A DNA stretch of 64,000 nucleotides from Escherichia coli (GTDB lineage Bacteria > Pseudomonadota > Gammaproteobacteria > Enterobacterales > Enterobacteriaceae), in NCBI RefSeq assembly GCF_024502345.1, contig NZ_JALDNN010000001.1; one strand, 5' to 3'. A program made the position numbers and the translations under genes. This document shows, piece by piece, positions 17,403 through 28,629 of this stretch (position 1 is the stretch's first letter; every line of letters starts with the position of its first letter). The notes beneath the pieces were generated by a model. It saw only the letters and a list, made by a program, of their open reading frames with translations, had not been told where the DNA came from and did no database searches.

Positions 17403-21467
<4,065 letters not shown>

Positions 21468-21611
21468 TGTTATCCCTCTGAAGTTCGTTTTTTACCATTT
21501 AGCCATAGTAAAAACATGAATTGTTTGATTTCGCGCATATTCGCTCATAATTCGAAAGTGAAACGTGATTTCATGCGTCATTTTGAACATTTTGTAAATC
21601 TTATTTAATAA

Positions 21612-21631
21612 TGTGTGCGGCAATTCACATT
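21612..21631. promoter_or_regulatory. CRP-binding site TGTGC-GGCAAT-TCACA in the glpA/glpT divergent control region
   Basis: Near-perfect match to the CRP consensus TGTGA-N6-TCACA, about 120 bp upstream of the glpT ATG; the glp regulon is known to be cAMP-CRP dependent. Confidence 0.65.
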
Positions 21632-21739
21632 TAATTTATGAATGTTTTCTTAACATCGCGGCAACTCAAGAAACGGCAGGTTCTCTCACTGAATCAGGCT
21701 GTTAATCATAAATAAGACCACGGGCCACGGAGGCTATCA

Positions 21740-23098
21740 ATGTTGAGTATTTTTAAACCAGCGCCACACAAAGCGCGCTTACCTGCCGCGGAGATCGATC
21801 CGACTTATCGTCGATTGCGCTGGCAAATTTTCCTGGGGATATTCTTTGGCTATGCTGCTTACTATTTGGTTCGTAAGAACTTTGCGCTCGCTATGCCTTA
21901 CCTGGTGGAGCAGGGATTCTCACGCGGTGATTTAGGTTTTGCGCTTTCTGGGATCTCGATCGCCTATGGATTTTCGAAATTCATCATGGGTTCGGTATCG
22001 GATCGCTCGAATCCGCGCGTTTTCCTGCCCGCAGGTTTGATTCTGGCGGCGGCAGTGATGTTGTTTATGGGCTTTGTGCCATGGGCGACGTCGAGCATTG
22101 CGGTAATGTTTGTACTGTTGTTCCTCTGCGGTTGGTTCCAGGGGATGGGGTGGCCGCCGTGTGGTCGTACTATGGTGCACTGGTGGTCGCAGAAAGAACG
22201 TGGCGGCATTGTGTCAGTGTGGAACTGTGCGCACAACGTCGGTGGTGGTATTCCGCCGCTGCTGTTCCTGCTGGGGATGGCCTGGTTCAATGACTGGCAC
22301 GCGGCGCTCTATATGCCCGCTTTCTGCGCCATTCTGGTGGCATTATTCGCCTTTGCGATGATGCGCGATACCCCGCAATCCTGTGGCCTGCCGCCGATCG
22401 AAGAGTACAAAAATGATTATCCGGACGACTATAACGAAAAAGCGGAACAGGAGCTGACTGCGAAGCAAATCTTCATGCAGTACGTGCTGCCGAACAAACT
22501 GCTGTGGTACATCGCCATCGCCAACGTGTTCGTTTATCTGCTGCGTTACGGCATCCTCGACTGGTCACCGACTTATCTGAAAGAGGTTAAGCATTTCGCG
22601 CTGGATAAATCCTCCTGGGCCTACTTCTTCTATGAGTATGCGGGTATTCCGGGCACCCTGCTGTGCGGCTGGATGTCGGATAAAGTCTTCCGTGGCAACC
22701 GTGGGGCAACCGGCGTCTTCTTTATGACACTGGTGACCATCGCGACTATCGTTTACTGGATGAACCCGGCAGGTAACCCAACCGTCGATATGATTTGTAT
22801 GATTGTTATCGGCTTCCTGATCTACGGCCCTGTGATGCTGATCGGTCTGCATGCGCTGGAACTGGCACCGAAAAAAGCGGCAGGAACGGCAGCGGGCTTT
22901 ACCGGTCTGTTTGGTTACCTGGGCGGTTCGGTGGCGGCGAGCGCGATTGTTGGCTACACCGTGGACTTCTTCGGCTGGGATGGCGGCTTTATGGTAATGA
23001 TTGGCGGCAGCATTCTGGCGGTTATCTTGTTGATTGTTGTGATGATTGGCGAAAAACGTCGCCATCAGGAATTACTGCAAAAACGCAACGGAGGCTAA
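21740..23098 (+). CDS. glpT: glycerol-3-phosphate:phosphate antiporter GlpT, MFS (452 aa)
   Basis: ORF 452 aa; MFS organophosphate antiporter sequence ([31 protein letters not shown]...). Confidence 0.96.
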
Positions 23099-24189: not shown

Positions 24190-24228
24190 GGCATCCGGGA
24201 AGGCAAAACCTGACCGGATGCCCTTTTC
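24190..24228. terminator. hairpin GGCATCCGG-N15-CCGGATGCC followed by CTTTT, between convergent glpQ and the LysR gene
   Basis: 9-bp perfect inverted repeat directly after the glpQ stop; T-run on the + strand. Confidence 0.5.
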
Positions 24229-25105
24229 ACAATATGCCTTTGACCACCAGGGTTTCCATACACATTTGCAATAAAAACAATGGGCTGCCTTCTACCGGCG
24301 CCTCTTTGACCAGCAATGAAATTTGCCGATAAAACGTCGGCTCCAGCGGGACAGAGCATAACTCACCGGCGACGGCTTTCAGCGTCAGCTCCGGTAACAG
24401 AGCAATTCCTAATCCCTGGCGAATAAAACTTATTGCCGTATCTGGATGGTTAAATTCATATTTAATGACCGGCGTAATATTCTTTTCCTTAAATAACGCC
24501 ATAATGCTTAATTCATAACGCCCCTTACTGATAATGAGCGGTTCTCCCACCAGTTCTTCCACCGATATAGCGTTATTTTTTGCCAGGGGATGAGCATCTG
24601 GCAGCACCACGGTAAATTTATCCTGATATACCGGGACGGAATACATTCCGGTTACCGGAAAATGGACAAAACCGGCATCGATAGTTTCGTTTTGCACCGA
24701 ATCAATAATTTCACTGCTGTTCTCTTCGTAAGGAATGATTTTTATCTGCGGATGATAAGTTTCAAAATAGCGAATAATACCCGGTAAAATACACGCGCAG
24801 GCGCTGGGAAAGCAGCCGATGCGCAGCGTTCTGGTCGGGTTATGTTTTTCCTGCTCGGCAATTTCTTTCACAGCGTTCACTTCACGGGTAATCGCCCGCA
24901 GATGGCTTGCGATGCGTGAGCCGGCGTCAGTCAGCTGCAGTGCTTTTCGCCGCTCGCGGATCAGGATCTCTACGCCAAGCTCTTGCTCCAGGGTGGCAAT
25001 GGCCTGGCTTACGGCGGATTGCGTCATAAACAGGCGCTTACTGGCTTCGGTAAAGCCGCCATAATCCAGTACGGCGAGCAGGGTGTGGATTTGGGTTAGT
25101 GTCAT
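24227..25105 (-). CDS. LysR-family transcriptional regulator (292 aa)
   Basis: N-terminal LysR HTH (MTLTQIHTLLAVLDYGGFTEASKRLFMTQSAVSQAIATLEQELG) plus substrate-binding domain; divergent from an MFS gene. Probably the intact counterpart of the K-12 yfaH remnant (inference). Confidence 0.85.
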   Translation of the reverse strand: MTLTQIHTLLAVLDYGGFTEASKRLFMTQSAVSQAIATLEQELGVEILIRERRKALQLTDAGSRIASHLRAITREVNAVKEIAEQEKHNPTRTLRIGCFPSACACILPGIIRYFETYHPQIKIIPYEENSSEIIDSVQNETIDAGFVHFPVTGMYSVPVYQDKFTVVLPDAHPLAKNNAISVEELVGEPLIISKGRYELSIMALFKEKNITPVIKYEFNHPDTAISFIRQGLGIALLPELTLKAVAGELCSVPLEPTFYRQISLLVKEAPVEGSPLFLLQMCMETLVVKGIL

Positions 25106-25174: not shown

Positions 25175-25269
25175 TTCTATCGAGTAAATCACATTTTGAC
25201 GCACCTGTAGTGGTTCAGCCTGTGATGCTGAGCGGTGTCCTTGTGCGCCATTTGAACGGGTCGTTTAGT

Positions 25270-26460
25270 ATGAAAGAAAAATTATGGACGAAAGATTTTT
25301 GGGCAATCACCATTATTAGCTTTATTATCTTTTTCGTCTTTTATGTGTTGCTGACCTTATTACCTATTTATATCTCCGATCGTCTCCATGCATCCCCTGA
25401 TAAAGCTGGTCTGCTGGTGACATTATTTTTAATTGCGGCGATTGTTATTCGACCCTTTGCCGGGCAATGGGTGGGTAAATATTCGAATAAAACTATTCTG
25501 GTGCTCTCTTCTCTGGCCTTTTTGGTGGTCACTGCGCTGTATCCTTTTTGCCACTCAATAGAATCACTGCTTTTTATTAGGGTGCTTCATGGTATTACCT
25601 TCGGGGTTATCACAACGGTAAAGGGAACGATTTCCGCGCGGCTGATCCCGGCTTCCCGACGTGGGGAGGGCATCAGTTTTTTCTCTTTGGCAATGGGGCT
25701 GGCAATGGTGGTCGGGCCGTGGATTGGCCTGAATATGGCGCGCTGGGAGGCCTTTAATATGGCTTTCTGGTTATGTACTGGCGTTGCGGCGGTGGGGATT
25801 ATCCTGTCGCTGATTATGACCGTGCCGCCGGTTATCAGCCATGCCGATGGTTCAAAGCCAAAGATGGGCTTCGCCGCCATGTTCGATCGCGCGGCATTGC
25901 CGTTTGCCATGGTTACATTCTTTATGACCTTTTCGTATGCCGGGGTTTCTGCCTTTCTGGCGCTTTACGCCCGCGAACTTAATCTGATGTCGGCGGCCAG
26001 TAATTTCCTGCTCTGCTACGCCATCTTCCTGATGATCTGCCGTACCTTCACCGGCAATGTTTGCGACAAAAAAGGCCCGAAATATGTGGTTTACCCCTGC
26101 CTGCTGTTCTTTACGGTTGGGCTGGTGGTTCTCGGCTACACCCAGGGCAGCGTAATGATGGTCGTTTCTGGCGCGTTGATTGGTATCGGGTATGGTTCCG
26201 TGACGCCAGTTTTTCAGACGCAGATTATCAGTTCAGTGGAACCGCATAAAATCGGTGTCGCAAACTCCCTCTTCTTCAATGCGATGGATGCAGGCCTGGC
26301 GCTGGGAGCCTGTGTGATGGGGATGATGGTTGCACATACTGGCTACCGAATGATTTATCTGCTGGGCGCACTATTAGTGGTAGTGGCTGGTGGAGTCTAT
26401 GCGCTGCAAATGAAGGGTAAAAGCGGTGTCGCGCTAGTAGTGGCAAAAGAAATTCATTAA
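25270..26460 (+). CDS. MFS transporter (396 aa), divergently paired with the LysR regulator
   Basis: ATG 25270 (MKEKLWTKDFWAITIISFIIFFVFYVLLTLLPIYI...); multi-TM hydrophobic profile of a major-facilitator transporter; six-frame ORF begins 20 codons upstream. Confidence 0.8.
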   Translation: MKEKLWTKDFWAITIISFIIFFVFYVLLTLLPIYISDRLHASPDKAGLLVTLFLIAAIVIRPFAGQWVGKYSNKTILVLSSLAFLVVTALYPFCHSIESLLFIRVLHGITFGVITTVKGTISARLIPASRRGEGISFFSLAMGLAMVVGPWIGLNMARWEAFNMAFWLCTGVAAVGIILSLIMTVPPVISHADGSKPKMGFAAMFDRAALPFAMVTFFMTFSYAGVSAFLALYARELNLMSAASNFLLCYAIFLMICRTFTGNVCDKKGPKYVVYPCLLFFTVGLVVLGYTQGSVMMVVSGALIGIGYGSVTPVFQTQIISSVEPHKIGVANSLFFNAMDAGLALGACVMGMMVAHTGYRMIYLLGALLVVVAGGVYALQMKGKSGVALVVAKEIH

Positions 26461-27499: not shown

Positions 27500-28629
27500 C
27501 AGAGCTGGAAGTTACTCAAATCGTCGGTGTCCACTTCGGAGTCAATCTGCCCGACCAGATAAGAACTCACCTCCACTTCCTGTGGAGCAACCTGCACGTT
27601 ATCAGACACCAGCCAGGTGTTGATCCACGGGATCGGGTTGGAGCGCGTCTGGAACGGCAGATCCAAACCAACCGCCTGCATACGGATATTGGTGATGTAC
27701 TCCACGTACTGGCAGAGAATGTCTTTGTTCAGACCAATCATCGAACCGTCACGGAACAGATAATCCGCCCAGTCTTTCTCCTGTTGTGCCGCCTGGACAA
27801 ACAGGTCATAGCACTCCTGCTTACATTCTTCGGCAATTTCCGCCATCTCCGGATCATCCGCGCCGCTGCGCAGCAGATTCAGCATATGCTGGGTGCCGGT
27901 CAGGTGCAGGGCTTCGTCGCGGGCAATCAGGCGAATAATTTTGGCGTTACCTTCCATCAGCTCACGTTCAGCGAATGCGAAAGAGCAAGCAAAGCTGACG
28001 TAGAAACGAATCGCTTCCAGCGCGTTAACGCTCATCAGGCAGAGATACAGTTTTTTCTTCAACTCGCGCAGGCTAACGGTTACGGTTTTACCGTTAACGG
28101 TGTGGGTGCCTTCGCCCAGCAGGTGCCAGTAGCTGGTCATTTCGATCAGCTCATCGTAATAGCTGGAGATCCCTTCCGCACGTTTCTGGATCTGCTCGTT
28201 GGTGACGATATCGTCAAACACAACAGACGGATCGTTAACGATATTACGAATGATATGAGTATAGGAACGGGAATGAATCGTTTCTGAGAACGCCCAGGTT
28301 TCGACCCAAGTTTCCAGTTCCGGGATCGAGATCAGCGGCAGCAGTGCCACGTTCGGGCTACGACCCTGAATGGAGTCCAGCAGCGTCTGATATTTCAGGT
28401 TGCTGATAAAGATGTGTTTTTCGTGTTCAGGCAGCGCCTGGTAATCGATACGGTCACGAGAAACGTCAACTTCTTCCGGACGCCAGAAGAAAGAGAGCTG
28501 CTTTTCGATCAGCTTTTCGAAGATGTCATATTTTTGCTGATCGTAGCGAGCCACGTTGACCGGCTGACCAAAGAACATCGGTTCTTTGAGCTGATCATTT
28601 TTCGTCTGTGAAAAGGTGGTATATGCCAT
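27499..28629 (-). CDS. nrdB: class Ia ribonucleotide reductase beta subunit NrdB (376 aa)
   Basis: Start [34 protein letters not shown] at 28629; di-iron/tyrosyl-radical protein; the six-frame ORF extends 17 codons upstream into the REP region. Confidence 0.95.

Follow-up and report, generated by a model that had tools for sequence, protein, structure and literature searches.

The 272-bp intergenic region between glpA and glpT is, with high probability, the classical control region shared by two divergent operons of Escherichia coli, glpTQ for the uptake of glycerol-3-phosphate and glpACB for its anaerobic oxidation. A preliminary description made from the sequence had named CRP, FNR and GlpR as its regulators, and this assignment is correct for the spacer according to published footprints, published repression by GlpR and the GlpR matrix matches presented below. 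The region is a textbook example of combinatorial control, in which catabolite, oxygen and inducer signals are brought to bear on two divergent operons, and it confirms for this spacer that real regulatory sites can be recognized by eye. Since fosfomycin is imported by GlpT, the region is also of clinical relevance.

In RegulonDB the promoter belongs to the most heavily annotated ones; the control region of E. coli is thus already known, and nothing new was learnt on E. coli itself. On glpTQ, RegulonDB 8.5 records 21 sites, which belong to 5 transcription factors (PMC4280137). Control of glpT by GlpR, CRP, FNR, CpxR, TorR, and Fis has been published (PMC10269713; PMC4790336), and CpxR, TorR, Fis, IHF, and PlaR are given as further inputs (PMC10269713).

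The analyzed window comprises 64,000 nucleotides, and the features of the glpA-glpT region are listed in Table 1. The glpB and glpC genes follow beyond glpA and glpQ follows beyond glpT, all of them identified by NCBIfam equivalogs far above the cut-off. A base-by-base comparison showed that the spacer is 100% identical to positions 2352375-2352646 of E. coli K-12 MG1655. It is the same locus as the K-12 glpTQ-glpACB control region without any difference in the spacer, and the published CRP and FNR footprint sequences are contained verbatim, falling exactly on the sites described here (PMC5352689). Gene identity, K-12 identity and the low G+C content bear out the earlier designation as an AT-rich divergent regulatory region of glpACB and glpTQ. 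The 601-bp query 21300-21900, annotated as glpA and glpT where it was matched, was present in 5419 of the 5426 complete E. coli genomes, several times with 100% identity. In the same interval, no credible match to an RNA family of Rfam was found.

Outside the spacer the strain differs from K-12. Between glpQ and inaA it carries an intact LysR-family regulator (24227-25105, minus strand) and a divergent MFS transporter (25210-26460, plus strand), whereas K-12 keeps only the yfaH pseudogene remnant at this place. The strain is thus not K-12, despite its identical glp spacer.

Table 1. Features assigned in and around the glpA-glpT control region (positions refer to the 64,000-nt window).
Feature	Position	Strand	Score or measure	Remarks
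glpA-glpT divergent intergenic control region	21468-21739		272 bp	36.4% G+C, vs 51.4% in the whole window
glpA	19839-21467	-	1109 bits	NCBIfam equivalog NF008313
glpT (glycerol-3-phosphate transporter)	21740-23098	+	976 bits	NCBIfam equivalog NF008433; first gene of glpTQ
glpT ribosome-binding site GGAGG	21729-21733	+		Read directly; block 21723-21735 conserved
CRP site 1, class II for glpT	21610-21631			Core TGTGC-N6-TCACA at 21614-21629, centre 21621.5; published footprint and consensus scan
glpT -10 hexamer TAACAT	21651-21656	+		TAnnAT 29.5 bp from the CRP centre in 24 species
Weak second CRP-like site CGTGATTTCATGCGTC	21564-21579		5/10	Centre 21571.5; in conserved block 21559-21577
FNR site TTGAT-TTCG-CGCAT	21525-21538		7/10	Centre 21531.5; inside the published 70-bp FNR-D154A footprint
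Best GlpR operator (predicted) ATTGTTTGATTTCGCGCATA	21520-21539		15/20, score 12.3	Third best 20-mer in 64 kb; overlaps the FNR site
GlpR-like operator TTCGCGCATATTCGCTCATA	21530-21549		score 8.1, empirical p 0.0005	Two 10-bp TTCGC(G/T)CATA repeats
GlpR-like operator GAAGTTCGTTTTTTACCATT	21480-21499		14/20, score 6.6	Conserved; in 20-bp register with 21520-21539
GlpR-like 20-mer on CRP site 1	21612-21631		score 6.9	9.4-14.4 in other species; candidate glpT-proximal operator
GlpR-like site CAGGTTCGATAATGCGCGCT inside glpA	21074-21093		score 11.4	Sixth best in window; candidate distal looping operator
Candidate extended -10 of glpA, TGGCTAAAT	21497-21505	-	90-100% conserved	Reads ATTTAGCCA on the plus strand
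Degenerate direct repeat TGTAA-N6-TTTAA	21593-21608	+	ArcA-type 7/10	Overlapping 21594-21608 CpxR-type 8/10; background level

The clearest element of the spacer is the CRP site in front of glpT. The string TGTGCGGCAATTCACA was found exactly at the position which had been given for it, and its core matches the CRP consensus at 9 of 10 positions, a quality reached by three sites in 64 kb and expected 0.013 times per 272 bp. Including the flanks, the 22-mer scores 13/16 and is the single best CRP-like 22-mer of the 64-kb window (P = 0.012 against composition-matched shuffles of the spacer). These statistics agree with the earlier judgement that it is the only clean consensus match in the spacer. 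A DNase I footprint of cAMP-CRP covers AATGTGTGCGGCAATTCACATT (identical to 21610-21631), corresponding to positions -30 to -52 of glpT (Kurabayashi et al., 2017; PMC5352689), and the expression of glpT is lost in crp and cyaA mutants (PMC5352689).

The promoter of glpT is a class II CRP promoter, for which the dyad core was established by the scan, and binding as well as the position near -41.5 by the literature (PMC5352689). The numbering in the same study implies a transcription start at about 21661-21663. In 24 of 30 species, TGTG and TTCACA are retained as half-sites around a 6-bp spacer of variable sequence. In a phylogenetic footprint of 31 Enterobacteriaceae spacers, which are 48-92% identical to that of E. 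coli, conserved blocks coincide with each of the proposed elements, and the glpT leader is poorly conserved. A generic promoter scan of the spacer yielded only an unconvincing TTGAAC-N18-AATAAT on the plus strand and recovered neither of the two proposed promoters, as is expected for activator-dependent promoters.

Several CRP sites have been reported for glpTQ-glpABC (PMC3105977; PMC4790336). The weak second CRP-like position reads TGTGATTTCATGCTCA or TGTGACTTTGTGCGCA in Raoultella and Klebsiella, where it reaches 8/10; against a second site stands the single CRP-protected region in the footprint of Kurabayashi et al. (PMC5352689). Additionally, a perfect palindrome TGAAA-CGTGA-TTTCA (21559-21573) was observed in the same conserved block, where it overlaps the weak CRP-like position just described. 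NsrR ChIP has been published with a peak in this control region, and the study predicts a half-site ACGTTTCACTT at 21559-21573.

Repression by GlpR through operators in the glpA-glpT region is established according to two later papers (PMC4790336; PMC7567609), which refer to Larson et al. (1992, J Biol Chem 267:6114) and Yang et al. (1997, Mol Microbiol 24:511); the binding of GlpR to this region is reported there to be relieved by glycerol-3-phosphate. For the search of operators a small, symmetrized matrix was built from five operators of glpD and glpFK only. The 20-bp palindrome consensus of GlpR, which we take to be WATGTTCGWTAWCGAACATW, was found in perfect form (20/20) at the glpD operator of K-12. 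Six matches with scores of at least 5.2 were obtained in the spacer, compared to 1.34 expected in shuffles (P = 0.003). The two best operators of the spacer (21520-21539 and 21480-21499) match the palindrome at 15/20 and 14/20 positions and lie exactly 40 bp apart, which fits the tandem 10/20-bp register of the operators at glpD and glpFK.

Most of the 26 species scanned have a GlpR match at the position of 21520-21539, with scores of 9.4-17.3. Counted from the glpA start codon, matches lie at -61/-62 in most of these species (up to 17.3) and at -21/-22 in about half of them, and further ones recur at -71 and -152 in several species. The position 21530-21549 scores 9-14 in several Citrobacter and other species, and the left half of the operator 21480-21499 is a perfect TATGTTCGTT in Raoultella and Enterobacter. 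The predicted operator boundaries are based on the five-site matrix and on conservation. The highest GlpR scores of the window, 28017-28036 (13.6) and 28227-28246 (16.8), lie apparently inside nrdB as judged by K-12 gene order and are probably due to chance.

It had been proposed that TTCG/CGAA elements of the spacer serve as GlpR half-sites, with ATTCGCTCATAATTCGAA "around 21530-21550" as an example. Such elements are indeed enriched, as five occur (at 21484, 21530, 21540, 21551, and 21553) where 1.85 are expected (P = 0.04), and three of them are phased 10-11 bp apart. The example, however, is located at 21539-21556, 8-9 bp to the right of the position given, scores 10-11/20, and represents the weak right-hand flank of the array instead of its best operator. 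The matrix scan thus places operators in the spacer and not elsewhere, and the principal one is shifted to the TTGAT element at 21520-21539. That ATTCGCTCATAATTCGAA itself should be the principal operator, formed by an inverted pair of TTCG and CGAA, is unlikely. Its block is well conserved, holds a TTCG at 21540 and a TTCGAA at 21551, and stands in tandem register with 21520-21539, like the weak operators which accompany strong ones at glpD and glpFK. Nevertheless, the 20-mers centred on it reach 9-11/20 and stay below the matrix threshold, only the left-overlapping 21530-21549 being significant. Furthermore, the distance from TTCG to CGAA does not suit a 20-bp palindrome, and the strongest and most widely conserved GlpR match is 21520-21539.

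Compared to the control regions of glpD and glpFK, which consist of tandem GlpR operators and CRP sites, phased 10/20-bp half-sites lying over promoter and activator sites are common to both. In contrast to them, the operators between glpA and glpT are weaker, none exceeding 15/20; the strongest of them is joined to an FNR half-site, and two divergent promoters share a single array.

This FNR half-site had been described as a TTGAT-containing element consistent with FNR control of glpA. It is present as TTGATTTCGCGCAT at 21525-21538, with one good half-site in comparison to the dyad TTGAT-N4-ATCAA. The consensus scan returned a site at the TTGAT as claimed, but its score is at background level, being reached by 97% of the spacer shuffles, so that the motif by sequence alone proves nothing. 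Experimental evidence comes from the FNR-D154A variant: its protected region of 70 bp starts 32 bp upstream of the CRP footprint and includes TTGAT-TTCG-CGCAT at -123 to -136 of glpT (PMC5352689). A deletion of fnr lowers the expression of glpT, and the footprint was interpreted for glpT activation (PMC5352689); a role at glpA rests on spacing and the older literature. In ChIP experiments the wild type showed no FNR peak at glpT or glpA; one was seen in an hns stpA mutant only, in which glpABC became strongly oxygen-regulated, with strong induction under anaerobic conditions (PMC3688515, Table S11). The site is thus a real one, although in some conditions it is masked.

Across the 31 Enterobacteriaceae spacers, TTGTTTGAT is nearly invariant. 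Of 16 more distant Enterobacterales, 14 carry TTGAT-N4-A(A/G)CAA at the equivalent position, among them Yersinia, Serratia, Dickeya, Pectobacterium, Providencia, and Edwardsiella; this sequence matches the FNR consensus at 9 of 10 positions. The footprint, the invariance in the Enterobacteriaceae and the 9/10 matches in distant genera make the FNR site credible. In these 14 genomes the FNR matches are also the top GlpR matches. One invariant T departs from the GlpR consensus, which has C there, and it is this base which creates the TTGAT. The best GlpR operator and the FNR site form one composite element that is conserved across the Enterobacterales.

For the glpA promoter, ATTTAGCCA (21497-21505) is the block of the spacer which varies least among 30 species; on the minus strand it gives the candidate extended -10 TGGCTAAAT. 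In 28 of the 30 species it stands exactly 27 bp from the TTGAT, although the bases in between vary. This fixed spacing places the centre of the FNR site 29.5 bp from the hexamer CTAAAT, just as far as CRP is from the -10 hexamer of glpT. Based on this arrangement, we infer that glpA transcription may start near 21490 from an extended -10 promoter with FNR at -41.5. The distance of 29.5 bp between activator centre and -10 region, shared by both promoters and conserved across genera, is that of class II CRP and FNR promoters with the activator at -41.5. Unlike typical promoters of this class, the candidate glpA hexamer is atypical, as CTAAAT is preceded by TG and lacks the usual A at -11, and the class II geometry of glpA is derived from the spacing only.

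Two other candidates were discarded: a -10 element TACTAT at 21510-21505 is unconserved and has the wrong distance from the FNR site, and a start near 21530 would put the FNR site over the start. No start-site data for glpA were found in the supplement of Kim 2012, in the Cappable-seq supplement or by a text search on glpA, FNR and 41.5. The near-total invariance of TGGCTAAAT could instead reflect another bound factor or an element of the leader RNA.

The composite nature of the element raises the question whether the conserved TTGTTTGATTTCGCGCATA is essentially a GlpR operator only, with an incidental TTGAT and a weak or indirect control of glpA and glpT by FNR in E. coli. In favour of this reading, the element fits GlpR (15/20, third in 64 kb) much more closely than FNR (7/10, background), its right half drifts toward the GlpR consensus elsewhere in the Enterobacteriaceae, e.g., to TTCGAACATA, and FNR ChIP gave no peak in the wild type (PMC3688515). 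These observations are outweighed by the in vitro footprint of FNR-D154A and the decreased glpT expression upon fnr deletion (PMC5352689), by the strong anaerobic induction of glpABC once the site is unmasked (PMC3688515, Table S11), and by three comparative features: the T which creates TTGAT in place of the consensus C of GlpR does not vary between species, the FNR match at this position is 9/10 in more distant genera, and the spacing from the invariant -10-like block stays constant at the class II value. An operator serving GlpR alone is thus very unlikely, and a composite FNR and GlpR element is preferred.

The following model of the region is proposed. CRP acts at glpT as an essential class II activator. 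FNR binds the degenerate TTGAT-N4-CGCAT (21525-21538), 41.5 bp upstream of the inferred glpA start, which would make the glpA promoter one of class II for FNR; from this site, about 130 bp upstream of glpT, FNR also boosts glpT expression anaerobically. In the absence of glycerol-3-phosphate, the DeoR-family repressor GlpR would occupy an array of phased 10-bp half-sites from about 21480 to 21559, with the strongest operator at 21520-21539 and others at 21530-21549 and 21480-21499. Of this array, 21480-21499 would overlie the inferred glpA start and its -10 region, and 21520-21559 the FNR site. Between both promoters lies the weak second CRP-like site with its centre at 21571.5.

According to published work, GlpR also represses glpT at a distance via further operators. 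Candidates for these are the 20-mer 21612-21631 over the CRP site and the site 21074-21093 inside glpA; as looping partners of GlpR, they are deduced from matrix matches. The match at 21074-21093 occurs only in the three Escherichia species, and no excess conservation of third codon positions was detected there. A mild signal of such conservation was obtained at 19890-19961, and at 19890-19971 near the 3′ end of glpA third codon positions are unusually conserved. This stretch overlaps the GlpR-like 20-mers 19898-19917 (6.4) and 19952-19971 (8.5) and lies 40-120 nt upstream of the glpB start; its conservation may reflect translational coupling or distal operators.

Consensus scans of the spacer for ArcA, IHF, and CpxR gave background-level matches only. 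For ArcA, a scan of which had been suggested in the preliminary description, nothing rose above background: the matches to TGTTA direct repeats with 11-bp spacing are mostly 7/10, of which 1.7 are expected per 272 bp, and the one match of 8/10, on the minus strand at 21651-21666 (0.22 expected), does not convince either. A direct binding of ArcA, adding to respiratory control, is hardly probable: it can draw on the weak repeats TGTAA-N6-TTTAA at 21593-21608 (7/10), on TGTTAATCAT at 21700-21709 (9/10 to WGTTAATTAW, 0.09 expected) and on older genetics naming arcA among the glpA regulators (Iuchi, 1990, as far as reported in citing work), but the former are at background level and suit a Pho box (14-16/18) better than ArcA (9-11/16) in other genera, 21700-21709 sits in the poorly conserved glpT leader, and glpA and glpT are absent from the tables of the ArcA ChIP supplement, the reference list apart.

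The repeat of the other genera, aligned to 21592-21610, has the form (C/T)TGTCAT-AWWW-NTGTAAC and directly precedes the CRP site of glpT in 25 of the 27 Enterobacteriaceae outside Escherichia which were examined. It matches the Pho-box consensus at 14-16 of 18 positions, about equal to the phoA box; the consensus was validated on pstS (18/18) and phoA (16/18), and in the E. coli window 14/18 is attained by a single site. The three Escherichia species (E. coli, E. whittamii, and E. albertii) show TTGTAAATCTTATTTAAT at the position of the repeat, with a score of 10/18. The presence of the Pho-box-like repeat elsewhere in the Enterobacteriaceae but not in Escherichia may be a new observation. In addition, the FNR site of E. 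coli is degraded, with 7/10 compared to 9/10 in the more distant genera. Tentatively, and with more doubt than confidence, the control region of Escherichia could be seen as a derived, rewired form of an ancestral one. If this is true, glpT would be under the control of PhoB, or of another member of the OmpR/PhoB family, in Citrobacter, Klebsiella, and Enterobacter, and this input would have been lost in Escherichia. In Klebsiella, Enterobacter, and Citrobacter, the repeat could be relevant to predictions of fosfomycin uptake when phosphate is limiting.

Finally, seven loci of distant Enterobacterales (Yersinia, Serratia, Dickeya, Pectobacterium, and others) were found to have a longer spacer of about 300-600 bp. 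They show a CRP site of 9-10/10 located 60 bp from the composite of FNR and GlpR sites, and a strong GlpR-like site close to glpT. The same parts are kept in these genomes, in an arrangement unlike that of the Enterobacteriaceae.
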